Positions 1 to 50,567 of a stretch of 64,000 nt of DNA are shown here, piece after piece (the stretch's first letter is position 1; each line of letters begins with the position of its first letter). The stretch is taken from contig JBBQZC010000005.1 of assembly GCA_038208115.1 (NCBI GenBank), positions 667 through 64,666 of the forward strand, read 5' to 3'. This DNA comes from Candidatus Moraniibacteriota bacterium. Lineage in GTDB: Bacteria; Patescibacteriota; Minisyncoccia; Moranbacterales; GCA-2747515. Both the position numbers and the translations under genes were made by a program. Below the pieces are notes generated by a model. The model ran no database searches and was not told the DNA's origin. It worked only from the letters and a program-made list of their open reading frames with translations.

Positions 1-794
1 GTGAGGTTTTCGTTGATTGTGAGGTTTATTGTGTTGTTATCTGTGATTGGTGTTAATTGGGTTGTGAAAGATGTTTCGTTTCCATGTGCTGTACCACCAG
101 TATTTGAGACTTTTGTGCGTATGTAATATGTTGTGTTTGGAGTGAGGGGTGTAAGTGGACAAGAATATACACCTATTCCACCTGTGCCTGCTGTGCAAGA
201 ATGAGTATACACACCAGATAGTGTGCCCCATTCAATTTCTCTTTCTGGATCTTCGCCTCCTGTATCTGTGACTTCTCCGTTACCTGTGGCTGTAGTGTCT
301 GAGATGTTTGATGCGGGTGGCGTTGATGATGGGGTGGATGGAGGATTTATCGTAATTACATCCAATGTGCTAAACGACCCCTCGAACCCCGGAAAATATG
401 TGTAATGGCTACCTCCATAGGTATTAGAATAATCATACGCATATATAACAGGTTGAAAAAAATAAACAGTATTAGGATTTAAACCGGTGATGTCACAAGA
501 ATACTCTCCAATACCTCCTTGACCAGAATAGCATCTCACTGTGTACACACCAGTAGAAACACCATAATCGAAAAGTCCTTCGAGATTTACTGCGCTACAA
601 GCACCAAATGTTCCAATAAAATTAACACTCAATGTTGCAGAATGATCTGTAATATTAGTTGCTGTTAGTGAATCAAAAGCAGCTCCACAAAATGCATACG
701 CTGAATTAGATATCAAGAAAGAAACACTAAAAAATAATGTAAAAAATATTATTTTTATATAATGCGATTGTTTATACAATTTTAAATTTTTCAT
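1..794 (-). CDS. Secreted surface protein, partial (C-terminus lies left of the window); signal peptide plus two FN3-like domains, then the start of the shared beta-module. Paralog of 5110..6066.
   Basis: Nt 1-200 nearly repeat nt 5581-5780. Minus-strand translation from ATG (rc of cat 792-794) gives MKNLKLYKQSHYIKIIFFTLFFSVSFLISNSAYA (signal peptide), then two ~85-aa FN3-like units ending in the conserved GNETSFTT motif of 5110..6066, then INLTINENLT as in the paralog. Frame stays open to nt 1. Confidence 0.6.
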   Translation of the reverse strand, partial: MKNLKLYKQSHYIKIIFFTLFFSVSFLISNSAYAFCGAAFDSLTATNITDHSATLSVNFIGTFGACSAVNLEGLFDYGVSTGVYTVRCYSGQGGIGEYSCDITGLNPNTVYFFQPVIYAYDYSNTYGGSHYTYFPGFEGSFSTLDVITINPPSTPSSTPPASNISDTTATGNGEVTDTGGEDPEREIEWGTLSGVYTHSCTAGTGGIGVYSCPLTPLTPNTTYYIRTKVSNTGGTAHGNETSFTTQLTPITDNNTINLTINENL

Positions 795-810
795 TATTTT
801 TCATTATTTT
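791..810. repeat. 10-nt AT-rich tandem repeat (tcattatttt x2) spanning the start codon of the partial surface gene
   Basis: Direct inspection: tcattatttt tcattatttt at 791-810. Confidence 0.5.
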
Positions 811-1068
811 TTATATTTGTATACATAATATCATTTTTCTCATTCTTGTACAATTTCTGTACTGTTGCATAGTCAAGGTTACTTTTTGAGGCAAATGCAT
901 TTAAAGAGTCTCTGTTGCTTGTACTATTAAAACCAGTACGACAATATATCATACACTCTCTCATCTAAAAACCTGTTCAGAAATGACTTTTTACATTCAC
1001 ATTTATCACTGAAAATCATTCACACTTTTGTAGACACAAATACTTTAAGAACTTTTAATCACTCAAAT

Positions 1069-2064
1069 TTAACGACGTTTTTTCTTGCGTTCTACTTTAA
1101 ATAGGCTGCTAAATATCAATTTTACGATGATGATACCGAGTAGACCACTACCGATAATGGCCAATCCTTTCCATGGGATGATATAGAATGTCGTTTCTCC
1201 ATCAAGTTTGATGGCGTCGTTTTCAGAATGCATCGCGAGTTTTGCTGTGTATTTCCCAAAATCCCACATGCCATATTCCAGCACTTCCCGATATTTATTA
1301 TTGATTTCTGGATAGAGGATGCGTGACTTCATCTCAACTGTGTGAAATTTTTTGCCAAATCTCGTAATCTCGATCGTGCCAAACATCGGATAATGCACAT
1401 TTCCCGTACTCTGCACCATCGCATTCATTATAATTGGCTTTTCAAAGTTCCATTTTTTTTCTACTGTGAAACTGCTCAAATCTGCACCGATACGCATCGG
1501 CTCATCACCTTGTACTGCGATAATCACAAGTGATCCAATCCTATAGCTCAAACCGATCCGTGACCCATCTCCTGATAAATCACCGCCCGTTGTGAAGAAA
1601 ACGCTGCCATAATAACCGCTCGTAGGACTATCTGCTGGGACACGCACAGTAAAATCCACCACCTTAGCCTCATCTGGCCCGAGATTAAAATCCTCTGGAA
1701 GATCAAACCAATCGATAATATCATGTGCTTTAAGGGGATGTTCAGTATCTGGGATAAAAAATTGCGGTTCAGTACCATCATCTCCGACAAAAAAGTCTTC
1801 GACACCCATGTGGACAAATAAATCTTTATCAGAATAATTTTTTACAACTATTTTACTTGTGCGCTCCTCTCCGCTGTTTAGCGTCCAGACAAATTTAATC
1901 GGTGAAATTTGTAAACCGCCCTCAGGAGGTAGATACTCCCCCGAATTAGCTTCTCCACTCTTCGTCTGTGCATATGCCGTATGAGATAGTCCACATATCA
2001 AAAAAACGGCTATACTAGCCATCAAAAAAAAATACCTTATTTTATTGATAAAAATATCTTTCAT
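1069..2064 (-). CDS. Cell-surface protein with N-terminal signal peptide and C-terminal TM anchor plus KKKRR tail (anchor subunit; paralog of 3253..4236)
   Basis: 331 aa. N-term MKDIFINKIRYFFLMASIAVFLICGLSHTAYA (signal peptide); C-term ...IPWKGLAIIGSGLLGIIIVKLIFSSLFKVERKKKRR (hydrophobic helix plus basic tail). Co-linear similarity to 3253..4236 (e.g. DWFDLPE/DWIDVPE, GSLVIIAVQGDEPMRI/GTLVLLQVQGDEPMRI). Confidence 0.7.
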   Translation of the reverse strand: MKDIFINKIRYFFLMASIAVFLICGLSHTAYAQTKSGEANSGEYLPPEGGLQISPIKFVWTLNSGEERTSKIVVKNYSDKDLFVHMGVEDFFVGDDGTEPQFFIPDTEHPLKAHDIIDWFDLPEDFNLGPDEAKVVDFTVRVPADSPTSGYYGSVFFTTGGDLSGDGSRIGLSYRIGSLVIIAVQGDEPMRIGADLSSFTVEKKWNFEKPIIMNAMVQSTGNVHYPMFGTIEITRFGKKFHTVEMKSRILYPEINNKYREVLEYGMWDFGKYTAKLAMHSENDAIKLDGETTFYIIPWKGLAIIGSGLLGIIIVKLIFSSLFKVERKKKRR

Positions 2065-2106
2065 AAAATACCGAAAATCATACTAATTATATAATGAATC
2101 TATATT

Positions 2107-2141
2107 CTCCTCAAACAGACTACTACGAGCTGTTTGAGGAG
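2107..2141 (-). promoter_or_regulatory. Perfect 12-bp-stem hairpin (ctcctcaaacag-N11-ctgtttgaggag) between the secreted-subunit gene and the anchor gene; no U-tract
   Basis: Perfect inverted repeat read directly from the sequence. Lies between the stop of 2197..2886 and the start of 1069..2064. Confidence 0.5.
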
Positions 2142-2196
2142 AAAAAGATGCATTATGCAATACGAACTTTTAATTGCATTTTTACATTAGGCAAAA

Positions 2197-2886
2197 TTAT
2201 GCACCATATGACTTTGCATCTGTTGTTGCTGTATATGTCACTTGACCTGTGTAAAATCCAGATTGCTGTGTAGGAAGGACATCTACTTTGAAACATGTGT
2301 CTACAGTAGAAGTGCCAGATACATAATCAGAATATGCCATCACAGTTTGTGCACTATCAGGGATACCTGAGAATTTGTTTGCATTTACTCCTGTTGTACA
2401 TGCACCATTTGTATCTGTCCAGACGTTAGTATTGATTGTGCTTCCTCCTTTATTAGGAAATTCAGTCATACTAAAGCCTAGGCCTGTACCAGTCCATGCA
2501 GCTGTTTGTATATTTGTTTGATCATATGCTGTTTTGTCAGGAATTTGATATCCTTCTACGTGCTTCAATACGTTACCTGTAGCGGATGTATTGTGTAAAC
2601 GGAGGAAAAATCCATCTTGATCATTTGTGATAACAGTACATTGTGCTTCTCCAACTGCTGGCACGCCAGCTGCTACTATGCCAAGACCTGCTGCACCGGT
2701 CAATGCGATAACAGTATCTCCTGTTGCAGTTGATTTGTCATAGCAGTCCAATTGCAATGTGCTTTGCACTTCAACTTCGAGGTTGACATCACTTGTTATT
2801 GTTTGATCTGCAAATGCTACAGATGTCATCGATAGAGAAAGTGCAATCGCACTTGTTCCAGCGATAATTTGTTTAAATTTCATCAT
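2197..2886 (-). CDS. Secreted beta-module protein (paralog of 4338..4955 and of the C-terminal domain of 5110..6066)
   Basis: 229 aa. MMKFKQIIAGTSAIALSLSMTSVAFA signal peptide, two Cys pairs, C-terminal ...GQVTYTATT motif shared with the paralogs (GSVTYTATG). Confidence 0.7.
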   Translation of the reverse strand: MMKFKQIIAGTSAIALSLSMTSVAFADQTITSDVNLEVEVQSTLQLDCYDKSTATGDTVIALTGAAGLGIVAAGVPAVGEAQCTVITNDQDGFFLRLHNTSATGNVLKHVEGYQIPDKTAYDQTNIQTAAWTGTGLGFSMTEFPNKGGSTINTNVWTDTNGACTTGVNANKFSGIPDSAQTVMAYSDYVSGTSTVDTCFKVDVLPTQQSGFYTGQVTYTATTDAKSYGA

Positions 2887-2957
2887 AATGATTTTTATAA
2901 TTATTACTTATTTATTTTTGTTTTTACTTACGACCAGAGTAAAAATCTCCTTAGGAA

Positions 2958-3016
2958 TATTATATCACACATTCTGAAAATTTGTGCAAGTGATAGTTAT
3001 GCACAGTCTATGCACA
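2958..3016 (-). promoter_or_regulatory. Putative promoter for 2197..2886 (extended -10 TGaTATAAT on the minus strand) with an upstream direct repeat TATGCACA-N3-TATGCACA
   Basis: rc of 2956-2966 reads tgtgatataat. Direct repeats at 2998-3005 and 3009-3016 have an 11-bp period, about -50 to -68 from the -10 element. Confidence 0.35.
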
Positions 3017-3199
3017 CTAAAATCATTTATTTATAACCTTTTTTCAAAATTCATACAAATGATAAAATTGCAAGTTTTTTATAAAATTACGTATTGAGAT
3101 TTACTTTGCATTTTTTTTAAATTTCACTATGTACATTTTATAGAAATAATCTAATTAATAAAATTAACTACTTTCCATATGAGACACCAGTACAAAAAT

Positions 3200-3227
3200 C
3201 AAAAAGCGGACAAAAATCCGCTTTTAA
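3200..3227 (-). terminator. Rho-independent terminator after anchor gene 3253..4236
   Basis: aaaaagcgga-caaaaa-tccgctttt hairpin flanked by A and T runs. Confidence 0.6.
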
Positions 3228-3252
3228 AATAATCCAAATCACTATTCACTGC

Positions 3253-4236
3253 CTATTTCCTTTTAGATTTTTTCCAGTCGATGATAACAAATTTTTTGAT
3301 GAATATGCGTATCGCGATCACAAGTACGATTACACCGCCAATCATCGCTGATGATTTCCATGGTATGACGAAAAAAGGCTCTGTCTCACCAGTAATTTGT
3401 ACAGTCCCCTCTTCTGAGCGCATCGTCAGAGTAGCCTTATACATCCCAAAATCCCACATACCAAAATCAATCTTATCCGTAAATAAACGGATACGCTCAG
3501 GATAGAGGTTTTCTGATTTCATTTCGACAGTTGCGAATTTTTTGTCAAATTTTGTGATTGTAATCTCTCCATCCACTTGATAGTGTACATTTGCAGTACT
3601 TTTGACACGCGTCGTGAGCTCAATCGGTTTATCCCAGAAAACTTTTTTCGCAACTGAAAATTCTTCCAATTGTCCTGCAATCCGCATCGGCTCATCACCT
3701 TGTACCTGTAGGAGGACGAGTGTCCCTACACGATAATGCACTTTGATCTTTGCACTGCCACCATCTGCATCATTTACATCAGCATCATCTGTTCGTGTTT
3801 TAAAAAATATACTTCCGTAATAACTATTAGTTGGCTGTCCTTCTGGTATTTGCACATGAAATTCTACTTCACGTGATTCTCCTGGAGCCATTGTGAACCC
3901 TTCTGGCACATCGATCCAATCAATCACATCATATGCTTTGAGTGGATGCTTTTCATCAGGTACAAAAAACTGTGGCTTGATCCCATCATCTGACACATAG
4001 AAATCTTCTACACTGATCTCAACGCCTTGTGGTACATCGGAATAATTGTGCAGTGAAATCTTCTCACTTTTTGCAGCACCATCTTCCATCTTCCAGTCCA
4101 CGCGCAAGGGTGACACTTGCACACCTTCAGTAGGTGATTCTGCAGCATATACAGGCACAACACATAGTAGCAACAAAAAAAATCCATAGGCAATGGACAT
4201 GTACGGTTTATTCATTTTTTTATCATTAATACACAT
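3253..4236 (-). CDS. Cell-surface anchor subunit paralog (signal peptide, C-terminal TM plus basic tail)
   Basis: 327 aa. N-term ...FFLLLLCVVPVYAAES; C-term VIPWKSSAMIGGVIVLVIAIRIFIKKF...KKSKRK. Paralog of 1069..2064. Confidence 0.7.
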   Translation of the reverse strand: MCINDKKMNKPYMSIAYGFFLLLLCVVPVYAAESPTEGVQVSPLRVDWKMEDGAAKSEKISLHNYSDVPQGVEISVEDFYVSDDGIKPQFFVPDEKHPLKAYDVIDWIDVPEGFTMAPGESREVEFHVQIPEGQPTNSYYGSIFFKTRTDDADVNDADGGSAKIKVHYRVGTLVLLQVQGDEPMRIAGQLEEFSVAKKVFWDKPIELTTRVKSTANVHYQVDGEITITKFDKKFATVEMKSENLYPERIRLFTDKIDFGMWDFGMYKATLTMRSEEGTVQITGETEPFFVIPWKSSAMIGGVIVLVIAIRIFIKKFVIIDWKKSKRK

Positions 4237-4295
4237 AAATACTCTTATATCACGCGGAAAATATCACATATTCATTTCATACGAATCTTTATGTT

Positions 4296-4325
4296 CTTTG
4301 AGAGGAAAAATGAATCCTCTCAAAG
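4296..4325 (-). promoter_or_regulatory. Perfect 10-bp-stem hairpin (ctttgagagg-N10-cctctcaaag) between secreted-subunit gene 4338..4955 and anchor gene 3253..4236
   Basis: Perfect inverted repeat. Arms are related to those of the 2107..2141 hairpin (CCTC..CAAA..AG). Confidence 0.5.
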
Positions 4326-4337
4326 AATAAAAAACCC

Positions 4338-4955
4338 TTAAAGAATTCCTGTCGCCGTATACGTCACAGAACCTTCATAAAGACCTGATGCTTGTGTCGA
4401 TGGTACATCTACACGATAGCAAATACCCACTGTTGTAGCTGTCGATGAGTAATCAGGCGTAGATGTGATCGTCGTATCAGCATCTGGGACTGCAGCATAT
4501 GTATTGGCTGCATCATGGCATGCTGTACCTGCACCCCATTTTGCTTCTTTATCTGGAGCACTATAGACACTAAAACCAAATCCTGTGCCAGTCCATGTTG
4601 TCGGTGCAGCGATTGTACCCGCATAGTCAGCGATTTCAAAGTTGACCCCGGTACCATTTGCATTACGCAACACTGTACCTGTTGCAAAATCATTTACTAC
4701 TGAAAGATCATAACCATCTTCATCATTTGTTGTAATCGTACAGGTTGTACTCGCTGATTCTGGTGTCGCTGCTGTAATACCTGGAGTACCTTCATCGATA
4801 GTGACATCTGCACCACACGCAAGCGTCATGTTCTCATTGACAGTCACTTGGAGATTTACTTGATCACTCGCTGTTGCAGCAAATGCAACTGGCGACAAAG
4901 ACAATGATAGCGCAATTGCACTTAGGCCCGCAATAATTCTTTTAAATTTCATCAT
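4338..4955 (-). CDS. Secreted beta-module protein (close paralog of the C-terminal 200 aa of 5110..6066)
   Basis: 205 aa. MMKFKRIIAGLSAIALSLSLSPVAFA signal peptide. VNENMTLACGADVTIDEGTPGITAATPESASTTCTITTNDEDGYDLSV is nearly identical to the 5110 paralog. C-term GSVTYTATGIL. Confidence 0.75.
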   Translation of the reverse strand: MMKFKRIIAGLSAIALSLSLSPVAFAATASDQVNLQVTVNENMTLACGADVTIDEGTPGITAATPESASTTCTITTNDEDGYDLSVVNDFATGTVLRNANGTGVNFEIADYAGTIAAPTTWTGTGFGFSVYSAPDKEAKWGAGTACHDAANTYAAVPDADTTITSTPDYSSTATTVGICYRVDVPSTQASGLYEGSVTYTATGIL

Positions 4956-4960
4956 ATATA

Positions 4961-4990
4961 TTTTTATTACTTTTTATTACTTTTTATTAC
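4961..4990. repeat. 10-nt tandem repeat tttttattac x3 in the 5' leader of 4338..4955
   Basis: Three perfect copies read directly. On the mRNA strand the unit is guaauaaaaa. Confidence 0.6.
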
Positions 4991-5038
4991 TTTTTTGTTT
5001 TATTCTCGACCCAGAAAAAAATTTACTTTATATTTTTC

Positions 5039-5090
5039 ATTATACTACATCCATCAATTTTTCCAAAATACAAGTTATCCACACTTCACT
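5039..5090 (-). promoter_or_regulatory. Putative sigma70-type promoter for 4338..4955 (TTGGAA-N16-TATAAT on the minus strand) with upstream TATCCACAC motif
   Basis: rc of 5039-5044 is tataat; rc of 5061-5066 is ttggaa. The motif tatccacac at about 5076-5084 resembles tatgcacac upstream of the 2197 promoter. Confidence 0.4.
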
Positions 5091-5109
5091 AAATTTCCCC
5101 TTTCTACTC

Positions 5110-6066
5110 TTACAACACCCCCGTCGCCGTATACGTCACAGAGCCGGTGTATGTGCCTGATGCTTGTGTAGAGAGGACATTGATACGATAACAGATCCCG
5201 ATGTCTGTAGCATCGTGTGTGTATTGTGTATTAGATGTGATTGTGGTGTTTGAGTCAGGAAAAGCTGCATAGTTATTATCTGTGTCATGACACGAGTTTC
5301 CTGTACCCCATTTGGATTCTTTTTGTGGTGCATCATAGATACTGAAAGCGAGTCCTTCTCCTGTGTAACTTGTTGGTGTGTCTATTGGACTTGTGTAATC
5401 AGGGATACTGTATGATTCATTTCTTAAGACATTGCCTGACGTGAAATCATTTATTACTGAGAAGTCGTAACCGTCTTCATCGTTTGTGGTTATAGTACAT
5501 GTAGAATTTGCTGATTCTGGTGTACCTGCTGTGAGACCAGGAGTTCCTTCATCTATTGTAATGTCTCCGTTACAGGAGAGTGTGAGGTTTTCGTTGATTG
5601 TGAGGTTGATATTATTGTTATAGGTTATTGGAGTTATACTGGTTGTGAAAGATGTTTCGTTTCCATGCGTTGTACCTGCTGAGTTGGTTGCGTATGCTCT
5701 GAGATAATATTGTGTATTTGGTGTGAGAGAGGTTAATTGACAGGAGTAGTCTCCGACTCCTCCTACTCCTGCAGTGCAGGAGTTTGTATAGGATCCACTT
5801 GCTGTACCCCACTCGATGAAACGTTCTGGGTTTTCGCTTCCTGTATTACTGATGTTACCGTTTCCTGTGGCTGTGGTGTCTGAAATGTTTGATGGAGAGG
5901 TTGATGTGAGGGATGGAGCAATTACTGCTGGCTCATCAAAATAAAATTCAATTTTTGTGATACTGAGGTTTCCCCAATTCAAATATAGCCGTCCGATATC
6001 TTCATTGCTTGGATAAGATAAATTTATTTCCTGAAGATTGACATAATCATTCGCAATACCGAGCAC
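5110..6066 (-). CDS. FN3-domain plus beta-module surface protein paralog; GTG start, no signal peptide of its own; probably the downstream part of a gene interrupted by in-frame TGA (see 6073..6378)
   Basis: 318 aa. FN3-like segment ...TPNTQYYLRAYATNSAGTTHGNETSFTT, then a beta-module near-identical to 4338..4955. Start codon is GTG (rc of cac 6064-6066). Confidence 0.6.
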   Translation of the reverse strand: MLGIANDYVNLQEINLSYPSNEDIGRLYLNWGNLSITKIEFYFDEPAVIAPSLTSTSPSNISDTTATGNGNISNTGSENPERFIEWGTASGSYTNSCTAGVGGVGDYSCQLTSLTPNTQYYLRAYATNSAGTTHGNETSFTTSITPITYNNNINLTINENLTLSCNGDITIDEGTPGLTAGTPESANSTCTITTNDEDGYDFSVINDFTSGNVLRNESYSIPDYTSPIDTPTSYTGEGLAFSIYDAPQKESKWGTGNSCHDTDNNYAAFPDSNTTITSNTQYTHDATDIGICYRINVLSTQASGTYTGSVTYTATGVL

Positions 6067-6072
6067 AACAGT

Positions 6073-6378
6073 TCATCCAACATTTCTTATGGAAAATTGT
6101 GGGGCAGGTCCTCCAGAAAAAGTCAACCTTGCTTTTGTTGGCCGCTCACCAGCCAATCTCGATCCCTGTAAAACGCCATTATTGTCTCCAGGATCTGAGT
6201 GAATAACAATTTCTGCAGGACAACAATAATTCCATTTACTTCCATCCCACCATCCATGTGTAGCTACAGGCCACCACGTAGGATTTGTACGATCTTCCCA
6301 TGCAGCAGAAACTTGCTGAAAAAACGACATGCCAAAAATTACACAAAAAATCAACAACAGTGCATTATTAGATTTCAT
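6073..6378 (-). CDS. Signal-peptide-bearing N-terminal fragment, in frame with 5110..6066 across a single TGA
   Basis: 101 aa. MKSNNALLLIFCVIFGMSFFQQVSAAW signal peptide. Stop TGA at 6073-6075; two codons later the 5110..6066 ORF begins in the same frame. Confidence 0.5.
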   Translation of the reverse strand: MKSNNALLLIFCVIFGMSFFQQVSAAWEDRTNPTWWPVATHGWWDGSKWNYCCPAEIVIHSDPGDNNGVLQGSRLAGERPTKARLTFSGGPAPQFSIRNVG

Positions 6379-6546
6379 AATATTTTTATTTTTATCTTAC
6401 TTAAATAGTATACCACATACCCAGAACATCTGTAAAGTCATCGTTATAATACTATGTCATTATTACTGTTTATACATATTTGATAAATAATTTCATATTT
6501 TTTGTTGTTTAATTAGTCTGACTACCCACATAGCTTTCCACATCTA

Positions 6547-47390: not shown

Positions 47391-50300
47391 TTAGTCCTTT
47401 ATCACAGCGTTCCAATCGTTACTGCCAGTACATACATATAAATATGCCTTTGTACTATTGCCCCCGACTGTTTCTGTGCCGCCATTTGTTTTGATAAATA
47501 ATTCACCTGTAGAACATCCTCCAGGGAGTGACGAACCGCTTGCGATACGTAATTTACCCGACGTAGTATCTACCGTGCCGTCTACATCAACATCCTCTAC
47601 ATTTTCGATATTCTTACCATTCATATCGATACCACCATCTGCCGTCAGTTTACCTTCGAGATTTAAACCACCCGATGCTGTAAAACCTGTGCCTGTATTA
47701 CCAATGTTTGTGATCAGATTATTATGCATGTTAATTGCGCTACGAAAATCTGAGTTACCAGTAATATCCACGCCACCAGCGATAACAGTGAGTTTATCGC
47801 CTATCGTTACCGTTCCGCCAAACGCACCGTTGCGATCAACATCCAAATCGGCATGTCCGCCACCTGAGTTTGTTACAGTTAATATCGTATGTGATCCATC
47901 ACTTAAATCTATTGAACGTGAATTATCAAAAGTAATATTTCCGTTCATTTCGATTGCAGTGAAGTCTGCATTACCATTTGCCTTTATGCCCCAATTTCCA
48001 CTATCAATTCCTACAGATGCTGAAGGATTACCGATCACAATCTTAGCAGCATCTGCTCCTGCAGTGCCGAGATTGATTATCGAAGGTGTGCCACTTGTAT
48101 TATCAGAATTCGTAAGTCCAGACAAAAAGTTGATTGCATCTGCATAAATCGTTGACCAACGACTCCCTGCCGTGCCAAGTGAACCACCAGTTATACTGCC
48201 TTCTACATGGAGATTTGCTTTGCCACCTCCTGTATTTTGGATGAATACATCAGAATCCGAACCATTATTACCAACTGAGAGCGCCATCGAATCATCTGAT
48301 GAAATAATGTCACCATTTTCTACTGTCGTGACACCATCAGTCAAAGAATTTGCACTCACATCACCAGTTGTCACAATGTCAGTTGAGCCATTGAGATCCT
48401 GTCCGATAATAGTTCCGTCTTGGATTTCATCAGTTGTTACTGCATCACTTGCAATTTTTTCATTTGTAACGCTTCCATCAGCCAATTTTACAGTTGTTAC
48501 AGCATTATCAGCGATTTTTGCAGTTGTTACTGCACCATCTGCGAGATGCGCAGGAGTGATTGCACTATCAGCAATCTTACCGCCTGTAATTGTTGCATCG
48601 GCGATTTTTGCAGTAATCACACTACCATCGGCAAGTTTTGCAGAAGTCACTACACTATCCACGATTTTAGCGGTTGTTACACTGTCGTCAGCGAGTTTAA
48701 TATCTGTAACTGCGCCATCGGCGATCTTTGCTGTTGTAATACTACCATCTACAAGATTAACTGTGACTACGGCACCATCGGCAATCTTGCCATTGACGAT
48801 TGCACCATCAATGAGCTTTATTGATGTGACGCTATTATCTGCAAGTTTTGCTGTTGTAATAATACCATCTGCAAGATCTGCAGCTTGCACTGTTCCATCA
48901 ATGATCTTTGCAGTTGTAACACTATCATCAGCCAATTTCAATGTTGTGATAGAGCCATCAGCAATTTTTGAACCAACAATTGCTGCATCCAAAATTTTAC
49001 CTGTTGTCACACTATCATCAGCAAGATGTGCTGTCGTCACTGCGAGAAATTCGATCTTTGAACTTGAAACGCTCCCATCAGCAAGTTTAATATTTGTCAC
49101 TGCATTATCTGCAATTTTTGTTGTTATGACACTCCCATCAGCAAGTTGAGTCATTGCAATCGCACCATCAGCGATTTTGCCTCCAGTGATTGTACCATCT
49201 TGGATCTTTGATGTGATGATACTGCCATCAGCAAGTTTCGTGGAAATAATTGCACCATCTGCAATTTGCAATGAACCCACACCGCTATCAGCAATACCAA
49301 TTGTATCAACTCCCACTTCGATACCTGTACCTGCGCCGACATTTAATGTCACTGTGCCAATATTACCTCCCCCAGTCATACCGTCTCCAGCAACAACATC
49401 AGTAATAGACGTAATGAGCGAAGAAATCGTCCATGTACCATCCATATTATTTGTAACAGAAGTATTTGGTCCTGCCACTATCGATTTAACCATACTTCCA
49501 TCAGAAGCAAGTTTATCACCAGTCAATGTACCGTCTGCAACTTGTGCGCCAGTGATCGTTCCTATGACCTTAGACGCACCAATACCAGTAATCCACGTCG
49601 GATCACTATATGTGCCTGTTGTGTACACACCATTTGTAACAGTATCTGCATTTCCAAAAAGATTTCCTGTCACATCACCAATAACATTACCCATAAGATC
49701 ACCGACAAAAGCTAACGCTGTGATACTTCCTGTAGTCGTCGCGTTGCCGCCGGCGATTGTCATTGTTCCATCAGTAAAAGACAACGCATTGATTGCGCCT
49801 GTTGTATTGATTGTGATATCTGCTGCAATCTTATTACCCGTAATTTCTTGATCACCAATCTTTGCATTTGTGATTGCACCATCAGCAATTTTTGCCGTAA
49901 CTACACTACCATCTGCCAGAGAAATTGTTGTAACCGCACCGTTTGCAAGCTTACCACTTGTAACTGCACCATCTTCGATCTTTGCAGTAGCAACGGCACC
50001 ATCAGATATCTTAATACCAGTTACTGCATTATCAGCGATCTTTGCTGTTGTAATTGCATCATTTTCGATTTTACTTGTTGCTACACTACCATCAGCTAGT
50101 TTTGTGCCAACGACAGCGCCATTTTCGATCTTTGCAGTTGTAACGCTTCCATTTGCCAATGTGACAGACAATATTGCACCATCAGCAATTTTACCTGATG
50201 TGATCGTACCATCCACTAATTTTGCACCAACAACCGTTCCATCCGCCAATTTCATTCCAACAATTGCACCATCACGCAAATCAGATGATTTGATTTTACC

Positions 50301-50567
50301 TTTCAAGTTCAGTTTTTTATATGCGATATTTGCGTTATTTGACACATCCTTATTCGTGATGCGTCGTGATATCACTTCGATATAATTTGCACCTTGTTGA
50401 AAATATCCTATAACCTTTTCTTGACGTGTTTTAGCCTCTACTGAAGCAAAAACTGACCCAAAAACAACCAAGGCACAAAAAAAAGCTCCTGTGACTCTGG
50501 TCATTTTGGAGTAACCCCGTTTTTGAGAAATTGAAGATTTATTACTTCTTTTTTCCGTAACGCTCAT
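47391..50567 (-). CDS. Giant secreted repeat protein: signal peptide, ~60 tandem degenerate 10-aa repeats (consensus K-I/L-A-D-G-A/S-V-T-T/S-A), and a distinct C-terminal ~150-aa domain
   Basis: 1058 aa. MTRVTGAFFCALVVFGSVFASVEA signal peptide (probable true start at MTRV, around nt 50504). Long runs of KLADGSVTTAKIADGAVT... . Antisense frames are also open, as expected for a repeat gene. Confidence 0.75.
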   Translation of the reverse strand: MSVTEKRSNKSSISQKRGYSKMTRVTGAFFCALVVFGSVFASVEAKTRQEKVIGYFQQGANYIEVISRRITNKDVSNNANIAYKKLNLKGKIKSSDLRDGAIVGMKLADGTVVGAKLVDGTITSGKIADGAILSVTLANGSVTTAKIENGAVVGTKLADGSVATSKIENDAITTAKIADNAVTGIKISDGAVATAKIEDGAVTSGKLANGAVTTISLADGSVVTAKIADGAITNAKIGDQEITGNKIAADITINTTGAINALSFTDGTMTIAGGNATTTGSITALAFVGDLMGNVIGDVTGNLFGNADTVTNGVYTTGTYSDPTWITGIGASKVIGTITGAQVADGTLTGDKLASDGSMVKSIVAGPNTSVTNNMDGTWTISSLITSITDVVAGDGMTGGGNIGTVTLNVGAGTGIEVGVDTIGIADSGVGSLQIADGAIISTKLADGSIITSKIQDGTITGGKIADGAIAMTQLADGSVITTKIADNAVTNIKLADGSVSSSKIEFLAVTTAHLADDSVTTGKILDAAIVGSKIADGSITTLKLADDSVTTAKIIDGTVQAADLADGIITTAKLADNSVTSIKLIDGAIVNGKIADGAVVTVNLVDGSITTAKIADGAVTDIKLADDSVTTAKIVDSVVTSAKLADGSVITAKIADATITGGKIADSAITPAHLADGAVTTAKIADNAVTTVKLADGSVTNEKIASDAVTTDEIQDGTIIGQDLNGSTDIVTTGDVSANSLTDGVTTVENGDIISSDDSMALSVGNNGSDSDVFIQNTGGGKANLHVEGSITGGSLGTAGSRWSTIYADAINFLSGLTNSDNTSGTPSIINLGTAGADAAKIVIGNPSASVGIDSGNWGIKANGNADFTAIEMNGNITFDNSRSIDLSDGSHTILTVTNSGGGHADLDVDRNGAFGGTVTIGDKLTVIAGGVDITGNSDFRSAINMHNNLITNIGNTGTGFTASGGLNLEGKLTADGGIDMNGKNIENVEDVDVDGTVDTTSGKLRIASGSSLPGGCSTGELFIKTNGGTETVGGNSTKAYLYVCTGSNDWNAVIKD

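Follow-up and report, generated by a model that had tools for sequence, protein, structure and literature searches.

Much of bacterial diversity belongs to the Patescibacteria, also called candidate phyla radiation (CPR) bacteria. Life attached to host cells is assumed for them, but the means of attachment are for the most part unknown. Chaperone-dependent pili were described for this group in a 2026 preprint (Troman et al., bioRxiv 10.64898/2026.03.03.709456): electron cryomicroscopy of filaments of Candidatus Mycosynbacter amalyticus (Saccharimonadia) identified the pilins PamA and PamB (PDB entries 25PZ and 25QA, in the supplement), both of which have paired cysteines and donate their linker strand to the subunit that follows. 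Here we analyse an array of surface-protein genes at positions 1–6400 of a 64 kb stretch of DNA (hereafter the window) from a Candidatus Moraniibacteriota bacterium (contig JBBQZC010000005.1), and conclude that it probably encodes a divergent Pam-type surface-fibre system that lacks an usher, with polymerisation as its proposed mode of action.

The pam operon encodes PamT, PamA/B/E, PamC/D and PamR, and no usher. PamC and PamD are FimC/PapD-like chaperones with an unusual C-terminal transmembrane (TM) helix; PamT, which has the pilin module only, is the proposed tip, and PamR, with FnIII domains and a TM helix, the proposed terminator or anchor. Homologues were restricted to the CPR in the survey reported there, and came mainly from Saccharimonadia and Microgenomatia; the preprint mentions neither Parcubacteria/Paceibacteria nor a link of the chaperones to DUF916/WxLIP proteins (10.64898/2026.03.03.709456). 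WxLIP proteins, which consist of a DUF916 domain, a DUF3324 domain and a TM helix, belong to gene clusters of Lactobacillales and Bacillales that typically encode one WxLIP, one small WxL protein and one large protein with a C-terminal WxL domain. For the Firmicutes proteins, AlphaFold2 (AF2) predicts that a hairpin strand of WxLIP completes the WxL sandwich (PMC10599100).

An earlier reading of the window from its letters alone (the sequence-only reading) had seen in the array secreted subunits paired with membrane-anchored partners, and had wondered whether they form an undescribed family. CPR pili with TM-anchored chaperones having been described in 2026, and NCBIfam Pam models matching members of the family weakly, that suggestion falls: this kind of system, a chaperone-dependent usher-less pilus of the CPR, is already known. 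The locus differs in its lineage, its minimal pilins, its FN3 domains, its paired gene order, the giant fusions of its module and a chaperone of the DUF916/WxLIP type.

Results

An array of secreted subunits and membrane-anchored partners

A scan for open reading frames (ORFs), with translations, agrees with the minus-strand genes that the sequence-only reading had placed in window 1–6400. Seven reading frames lie there, transcribed in the order 101-aa ORF, B3, B2, A2, B1, A1, B0, where B stands for subunits and A for their partners, and an N-terminal signal peptide is present in every array protein.

1..794, minus strand: B0, 5' part of a pilin gene (partial, 264 residues visible, continuing beyond the window edge)
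1069..2064, minus strand: A1, membrane-tethered chaperone-like protein (331 aa)
2197..2886, minus strand: B1, short pilin-like subunit (229 aa)
3253..4236, minus strand: A2, membrane-tethered chaperone-like protein (327 aa)
4338..4955, minus strand: B2, short pilin-like subunit (205 aa)
5110..6066, minus strand: B3, 3' ORF (318 aa, GTG start)
6073..6378, minus strand: B3, 5' ORF with signal peptide (101 aa)

The subunits share a pilin-like C-terminal module

B1, B2 and B3 are paralogues, as had been proposed. They share a C-terminal β module with 35–47% identity, all ending VTYTAT, and a profile built from homologues matches them at E = 1e-55 to 1e-76 (B1 9e-57, B3 2e-55). The description of the module as Cys-paired is likewise borne out, each copy having four Cys that are conserved in 21–22 of 48 homologues; of the fourth copy, in B0, 11 residues at the start of the module region are in view, again in agreement with the earlier description. 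In B2 a signal peptide (residues 1–26) is followed by an alternating strand (V33–V39) and by the module (43–205) with two Cys pairs, while B1, also with four Cys, is one of a subfamily marked by an insertion and by additional C-terminal residues (...TATTDAKSYGA). B1 and B2 consist of a linker/donor-type strand plus the module only, ∼180 aa in the mature protein. The subunits end VTYTATG-xx, without a hydrophobic tail.

Structures were predicted with AF2 for the monomers of B2 and A2, with alignments of homologues as input. The B2 model (predicted local distance difference test score, pLDDT, 87) has pilin-like neighbours. Its top Foldseek matches are CfaB, CsuA/B, CS20 and the PapG pilin domain, and in a structural comparison CsuA/B came first, followed by CupE, CfaE/CfaB, PapG, the FimH pilin domain, FimA/G/I/F, CS6, Caf1 and Pap subunits, with archaeal and Bacillus strand-complemented filament subunits lower down. 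The structure prediction of the module that the sequence-only reading had called for agrees, as regards the pilin, with its own passing alternative, a likeness to pilin/anchor pairs. Single-sequence searches of the PDB returned nothing meaningful, and neither did a profile search with the subunit family.

A conserved β-strand-like segment of alternating hydrophobic residues sits directly ahead of the module, after the signal-peptide cleavage site in B1 and B2 and after an FN3-like domain in B0 and B3. Among short members, the share with a hydrophobic residue is 94% at profile position 33, 98% at 35, 66% at 37 and 99% at 39; most long members have the segment too. PamT-like proteins lack it, their profile matches beginning at positions 36–39. 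In the B2 monomer model, DSSP gives no strand for residues 31–42.

The two long subunits carry further domains. In B0 a signal peptide and two FN3-like regions are followed by a Pro/Ser/Thr linker and by the beginning of the linker strand (TINLTINENL); B3, as a 423-codon frame (5110..6378, minus strand), has a signal peptide and an unassigned N-terminal region of ∼120 aa that spans the stop codon described below, then one FN3-like domain, and after it the linker strand and module. FN3-like domains had been claimed for two of the four subunits: the regions are there, in B0 and B3, but every FN3 call in the array falls under the Pfam thresholds (in B0, Pur_ac_phosph_N at E = 5.5e-6 and fn3 at E = 0.014). 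B0 and B3 share 70% protein identity over 113 aa that span the FN3-like domain and the following strand. The corresponding DNA, nt 1–200 and 5581–5780, had been taken for near-identical gene 5' ends and as a sign of recent duplication; it is 72–73% identical and encodes the FN3/linker-strand region rather than gene 5' ends, so that with copies ∼72% identical a recent duplication was an overstatement.

B3 had also been described as an interrupted copy. Its frame is split, but the interruption amounts to one in-frame TGA (6073–6075), which, with two further codons, separates the 101-aa signal-peptide ORF from the 318-aa, GTG-started ORF that has no signal peptide. TGA terminates 9 of the 47 long ORFs in the window and is therefore an ordinary stop here, which excludes genetic codes 25 and 4, so B3 carries a nonsense mutation, contains a sequencing error or is read through. 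Among the fetched proteins and loci there was no intact homologue of the stretch across the TGA.

The partners resemble WxLIP and pilus chaperones

A1 and A2 are 46% identical (E = 9e-98), and A1 matches the family profile at E = 9e-127. Both have the topology earlier ascribed to the two ∼330-aa proteins, namely a signal peptide, a C-terminal TM helix and a KKKRR (A1) or KKSKRK (A2) tail, and in addition two β domains. The true start of A1 is possibly Met15 (window 2022; an alternative gene call gives 317 aa), and the database gene call of A2 begins at Met13 (315 aa). The A2 model (pLDDT 81) places β domains at residues 39–179 and 188–290 and the TM helix at 293–315, with a low-confidence hairpin (∼150–168) ahead of the last long strand of domain 1.

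The best Foldseek match of A2 in the PDB is Enterococcus faecium WxLIP (9i1y, 9i25; E = 2.5e-11), after which come more than 20 chains of chaperone-usher chaperones (CfaA, Caf1M, DraB, CsuC, FimC, SafB, EcpB and PapD; E = 1e-9 to 1e-7). A PDB search with a sequence profile of the chaperone family recovered EfmWxLIP1 (E = 0.025) and, more weakly, EcpB (E = 0.9). The Pfam family PF06030 (DUF916/WxLIP_PGBD; cutoff 27.3 bits) gives 24.8 bits for A2 (E = 2.4e-5) and 16.2 bits for A1 (E = 0.011), matches 18/18 chaperone-family members at E<0.1 (best 1e-9), and is already a precomputed assignment of several homologues. Neither the two partners nor the 18 homologues match DUF3324 (PF11797), and there were no matches to PapD_N/PapD_C or to fimbrial Pfam families. 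A homologue search from an alignment of close and divergent chaperones returned 20 CPR proteins only, with no bridge to Saccharimonadia or Firmicutes.

The sequence-only reading had likened the pairs to Csc/WxL-type complexes and had proposed Pfam searches as a check. The likeness holds for the partner, with PF06030 just under its cutoff and WxLIP as the top structural match, but not beyond it: PF11797 and PF13731 gave nothing and FN3 stayed sub-threshold. No W-x-L motif occurs in any of the four subunit-like proteins, as had been stated, and the WxL domain PF13731 has no match in them at E<=1. A literal WxL cluster was rejected on these grounds (no PF13731, no W-x-L motifs, no DUF3324, no LPXTG).

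Two separate models recover matching halves of one machinery, pilins in the case of B2 and their chaperones in that of A2. The ∼330-aa proteins had been cast as anchors; they are indeed membrane-anchored, but are more likely to be membrane-tethered PapD/WxLIP-like chaperones than passive anchors.

Remote matches to Pam models

Comparison with Pam proteins was made through NCBIfam models and the published description. The pilin model NF058581 (CPR_Pam_pilin_C) matches 18 of 48 subunit-family members at E<0.1 (best 3.3e-6), one relative reaching 25.9 bits; B1 and B3 have no match to it. Loci related to the window array (numbered L001 and so on) were examined with the model NF058579 (CPR_pilus_PamT): the three first genes tested (in L003, L005 and L007) match at E = 2e-10 to 3e-13, and similar database representatives (P0154, P0190, P0203) at E = 3e-11 to 9e-15. 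The scores lie far under the curated cutoffs and therefore speak for remote homology, not formal membership.

Related loci keep subunit and chaperone genes together

Species-representative genomes, scanned with the alignment of the chaperones, gave 23 loci, most of them in Candidatus Moraniibacteriota metagenome-assembled genomes (MAGs), within the Parcubacteria group. Homologues with an informative organism name are all from Patescibacteria/CPR (Pacebacteria, Berkelbacteria, 'Patescibacteria group'), in keeping with the earlier suggestion of a surface system of subunits and membrane-anchored partners in a small-genome, probably host-attached organism. About 20 loci have either one or two pilin genes followed by an A1/A2-like chaperone gene and then a divergent one (E = 1e-8 to 1e-40), a pair that recalls PamC and PamD, or alternating pilin/chaperone pairs; L007 alternates as the window does, with a similar arrangement in L018, L021 and L023. 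The leading gene is PamT-like (a 'type 2' subunit) in ∼10 related loci. Since the numbers of pilin and chaperone genes differ across genomes, the array is variable; the copy number, which the sequence-only reading had proposed to compare between related genomes, does vary, as does gene order.

In four loci a small protein of 167–204 aa is encoded directly after the second chaperone (L005:11925-12539, L011:4346-4873, L013:7474-8013, L014:11833-12336). It has a signal peptide, an ectodomain of ∼100 aa, a C-terminal TM helix and a basic tail, and, with no Pfam or NCBIfam match, is PamR-like in position and topology only.

Two observations concern the assemblies themselves. The contigs of L001 (which is window ∼862–5145), L002, L007, L010 and L012 stop inside the array or at its edge; a 4.3-kb Logan contig of the source sample (SRR19962012), which falls within the window, likewise ends inside the array. 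Assemblies seem to break at the pilin/chaperone paralogues, and copy numbers in MAGs may therefore be underestimated. Seven loci that share with Moraniibacteriota MAGs a pilin-pilin-chaperone-chaperone cluster (L003, L004, L005, L010, L011, L014, L023) come from MAGs titled, as given, Bdellovibrionales, Micavibrio or Pseudobdellovibrionaceae. Either these are mislabelled CPR bins or the system is present outside the CPR.

The module is a C-terminal domain of many surface proteins

When the module profile was searched against 1.84 billion cluster representatives, 1,152 clusters matched at E<=1e-3, of which 392 had E<=1e-10. In the 196 members retrieved, which range from 200 to 3,773 aa, the module ends 0–10 residues from the C-terminus (six or fewer in all but one). 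More than 1,000 aa were found in 32 of the 196, some with delta-60 repeats or N-terminal signal anchors, and many giants in the representative database end in the pilin module. Giants of 1,300–2,580 aa also flank related clusters (L004, L005, L013, L015, L016, L019, L022), with domains that are RCC1 repeats and FN3, six LamG, or a Gly-rich region with F5/8-type-C and LamG.

Stem-loops and other transcription signals

According to the sequence-only reading, each subunit/partner pair is framed by a promoter, an intercistronic hairpin and a terminator. Hairpins are present in both pairs, but a terminator was found after A2 only, and the promoters do not rise above shuffled sequence: promoter-like hexamers precede each unit, with 34 in the sequence as against 26±6 after shuffling. 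The features are as follows, with folding free energies (dG) for RNA.

2105..2143, minus strand: B1–A1 intercistronic stem-loop, perfect 14-bp stem without a T-run (dG −24.2 kcal/mol, z −7.1)
4288..4333, minus strand: B2–A2 intercistronic stem-loop (dG −24.5, z −6.6)
3202..3225, minus strand: intrinsic-terminator-like hairpin with T-run, downstream of A2 (dG −13, z −5.4)
2959..2988, minus strand: promoter-like site upstream of B1 (TGCACA, 18 nt, TG, TATAAT; consensus match)
5039..5066, minus strand: promoter-like site upstream of B2 (TTGGAA, 16 nt, TATAAT; consensus match)
6407..6436, minus strand: promoter-like site upstream of the B3 frame (TTTACA, 18 nt, TG, TATACT), marking the right end of the locus

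No terminator was found after A1 (1069), and the B3–B2 spacer RNA is unstructured (z +0.3). Hairpins like that between B2 and A2 follow the pilin gene in the relatives L002, L007, L012 and L003. A further promoter-like site at 2086–2114 (minus strand; TTGAGG, 17 nt, TATAAT; consensus match) overlaps the 3' arm of the B1–A1 hairpin, so hairpin formation and transcription of the chaperone gene could be coupled. Rfam gave no family at gathering score anywhere in the 64 kb window.

Flanks of the array

The array extends leftward past window position 1. On its right, from 6547, lie housekeeping genes (LytB/IspH, an HhH-GPD glycosylase, an SNase, a C39-like peptidase and YceG). The longest ORF in 1–6400 has 331 aa, and an usher gene (∼800 aa) was not found there; with no usher-sized ORF in the array and a housekeeping right flank, a classical chaperone-usher operon was rejected. 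The six array proteins contain no LPXT[GAS] motif, and no sortase-sized gene occurs in the array or the right flank.

Across the 64 kb window GC skew is negative throughout and almost all long ORFs are on the minus strand. An ORF of 1058 aa at 47391–50567 (minus strand) has a signal anchor at its N-terminus and an extended series of 'DGxVTTAKIADG'-type repeats, each of ∼11 residues; Pfam gives no match at E<=1e-5, and the GC content of the stretch in which it lies is the highest in the window (0.42 versus ∼0.36). It may be a tail-fibre-like surface protein. A tail-fibre-like gene is recorded in pam neighbourhoods (10.64898/2026.03.03.709456).

Discussion

We have shown that a Parcubacteria-group bacterium carries tandem pairs of genes for secreted, pilin-like subunits and membrane-tethered, chaperone-like partners. 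On balance we favour the view that they form a divergent relative of the Pam system, and the assembly of a fibre can be pictured as follows. B0–B3, which have signal peptides, would be exported by Sec. The immunoglobulin (Ig)-like pilin module at their extreme C-terminus would have an incomplete fold, as in chaperone-usher pilins, and the strand ahead of it, which occupies the position of the PamA/PamB linker strand, may be donated to a neighbouring subunit. A1 and A2, type I membrane proteins by model and topology, would close the open groove of each subunit just exported with a strand of the flexible hairpin of domain 1; AlphaFold predicts such capping for WxLIP and WxL, and for PapD-like chaperones it is established. 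By donor-strand exchange, subunits would next form a thin polymeric fibre at the cytoplasmic membrane; in a cell that has no outer membrane, an usher would not be needed. FN3-bearing paralogues may decorate or vary the fibre, and the module-tagged giants of related genomes could be loaded in the same way as adhesin cargo. The stem-loop after the short pilin gene probably raises the ratio of pilin to chaperone, by partial termination or by stabilisation of the transcript 3' end. The likely role of such a fibre is attachment to host cells or surfaces.

The likeness to Pam extends over several features. A1 and A2 are FimC/PapD-like with a C-terminal TM helix and adjoin subunit genes; in relatives of the locus there are two chaperone genes per cluster, a PamT-like gene leads in ∼10 loci, and in four the second chaperone is followed by a small protein with a TM anchor. 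Cysteines are paired, an usher is lacking, and the strand between the N-terminal domain and the module of B0 and B3 lies where the Pam donor strand does. In contrast to the Pam organisms, which are mainly Saccharimonadia or Microgenomatia, the present one belongs to the Parcubacteria group (Moraniibacteriota). Its genes form tandem pilin-chaperone pairs with intercistronic hairpins, its long subunits carry FN3-like domains instead of the nine-strand sandwich, and the module of its family is fused to many giant proteins.

There are also similarities to the chaperone-usher systems (Fim, Pap, Caf1, CFA/I, Csu, CupE): the subunit has a pilin-like Ig fold and its partner is PapD-like; the pilin domain is C-terminal in multidomain proteins, as in FimH and PapG, with a conserved extreme C-terminus; and an alternating-hydrophobic strand precedes it. 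Here, however, there is neither an usher nor an outer membrane, the chaperone is tethered to the membrane rather than soluble in the periplasm, and the strand of donor type can lie inside the protein, with an N-terminal domain before it and the pilin domain after it. Archaeal threads and cannulae and Bacillus TasA/TapA are further removed, scoring under the chaperone-usher pilins and having no two-domain membrane-anchored chaperone beside each subunit.

Several observations weigh against a Pam-type fibre. The Foldseek E-values of B2 are marginal (best 7.8e-4, TM-scores 0.4–0.6), and Ig-like folds are common. B2 reaches 16.7 bits (E = 0.006) with NF058581 as against a curated cutoff of 55 bits, the matches of relatives to the PamT model reach 43–55 bits as against an equivalog cutoff of 240 bits, and the chaperone-like proteins have no NCBIfam match. 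No PamT-like gene (no match to NF058579) or PamR-like gene is seen in the window, where the array runs off the edge. The nine-strand N-terminal domain, a stabilising element of Pam filaments, is absent from the short pilins, and the N-terminal strand of B2, at a pLDDT of ∼88 in the monomer, may pack on its own module. Pam filaments have been observed; the evidence on the present system comes from genes and predicted monomers. Finally, WxLIP, the best structural match of A2, has a proposed display role in which nothing polymerises (PMC10599100).

This last point leads to the rival that fares best, namely display without a fibre, in which a TM-anchored DUF916-type protein would hold the secreted module proteins, and in relatives the giants that end in the module, at the surface and complete their β-sandwich with its own strand. 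E. faecium WxLIP heads both the structural and the PDB-sequence matches of A2, the PF06030 match runs through 18/18 family members, and the WxLIP hairpin of Firmicutes is predicted to do just this to the WxL sandwich (PMC10599100). The A proteins share with WxLIP the signal peptide, two Ig-like domains, of which domain 1 matches PF06030, a flexible hairpin and a C-terminal TM helix, and the layout of the CPR family equals that of WxL clusters in having small module-only proteins and large proteins with a C-terminal module beside a TM-anchored partner. Nevertheless, WxL domains and motifs, DUF3324 and an LPXTG partner were not found, and the lineage is another. The neighbours of the module are subunits that polymerise by donor-strand exchange, whereas the WxL chain of 9i25 is absent from its top 50–60 matches; the conserved extra strand of donor type ahead of the module would be unneeded for display alone; and the sequence links lead to the Pam pilin and PamT models, that is, to a system that forms filaments. 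We therefore regard simple display as unlikely.

It is more improbable still that these are unrelated Ig-like adhesins or membrane proteins with a generic β-sandwich likeness, paired for some other function such as an envelope scaffold or a substrate-binding complex. All HMM (hidden Markov model) matches of window proteins are under curated thresholds, TM-scores are modest, and the structural match lists include other Ig-like proteins as well (glycosidase accessory domains, integrins and hydin). Chance likeness would nevertheless have to explain why independent models of B2 and A2 retrieve pilins and chaperones, respectively, why subunit-chaperone synteny is kept in ∼20 loci, why the PamT model matches at E = 1e-10 to 1e-15, and why the module is always at the extreme C-terminus, like the pilin domains of chaperone-usher adhesins. 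A sortase-type Gram-positive pilus, or a covalent pilin-anchor pair on the cell wall, fits the general picture only (a monoderm with secreted Ig-like subunits and paired cysteines) and was rejected as scarcely credible, since its tested defining features fail: the six proteins have no LPXTG signal, no sortase-sized gene lies in the array or right flank, and the subunits end VTYTATG-xx without a hydrophobic tail.

If the Pam-type reading is taken further, the module and its linker strand could be a general 'fibre-loading tag' of Parcubacteria-group CPR, one that lets tethered DUF916-type chaperones assemble surface fibres from both small pilins and giant adhesins. The DUF916/WxLIP chaperone lineage would then underlie the WxL clusters of Firmicutes as well, and Pam, the present family and WxL/WxLIP would be branches of one ancient usher-less monoderm pathway related to Gram-negative chaperone-usher assembly. 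We offer this wider scheme as a possibility, and a doubtful one.

In conclusion, the locus suggests that the Parcubacteria group has a related system, dependent on chaperones and without an usher, in a minimal form, a strand plus a pilin domain; that the same module, carried by more than 1,000 protein clusters, is also fused to giant surface proteins; and that its chaperone is of the DUF916/WxLIP lineage, which surface clusters of Enterococcus, Listeria and Lactobacillus are known to encode. If this is true, many 'hypothetical' CPR surface proteins would gain an annotation, and there would be a testable evolutionary link among Gram-negative chaperone-usher pili, the Pam pili of CPR and the WxL complexes of Firmicutes.

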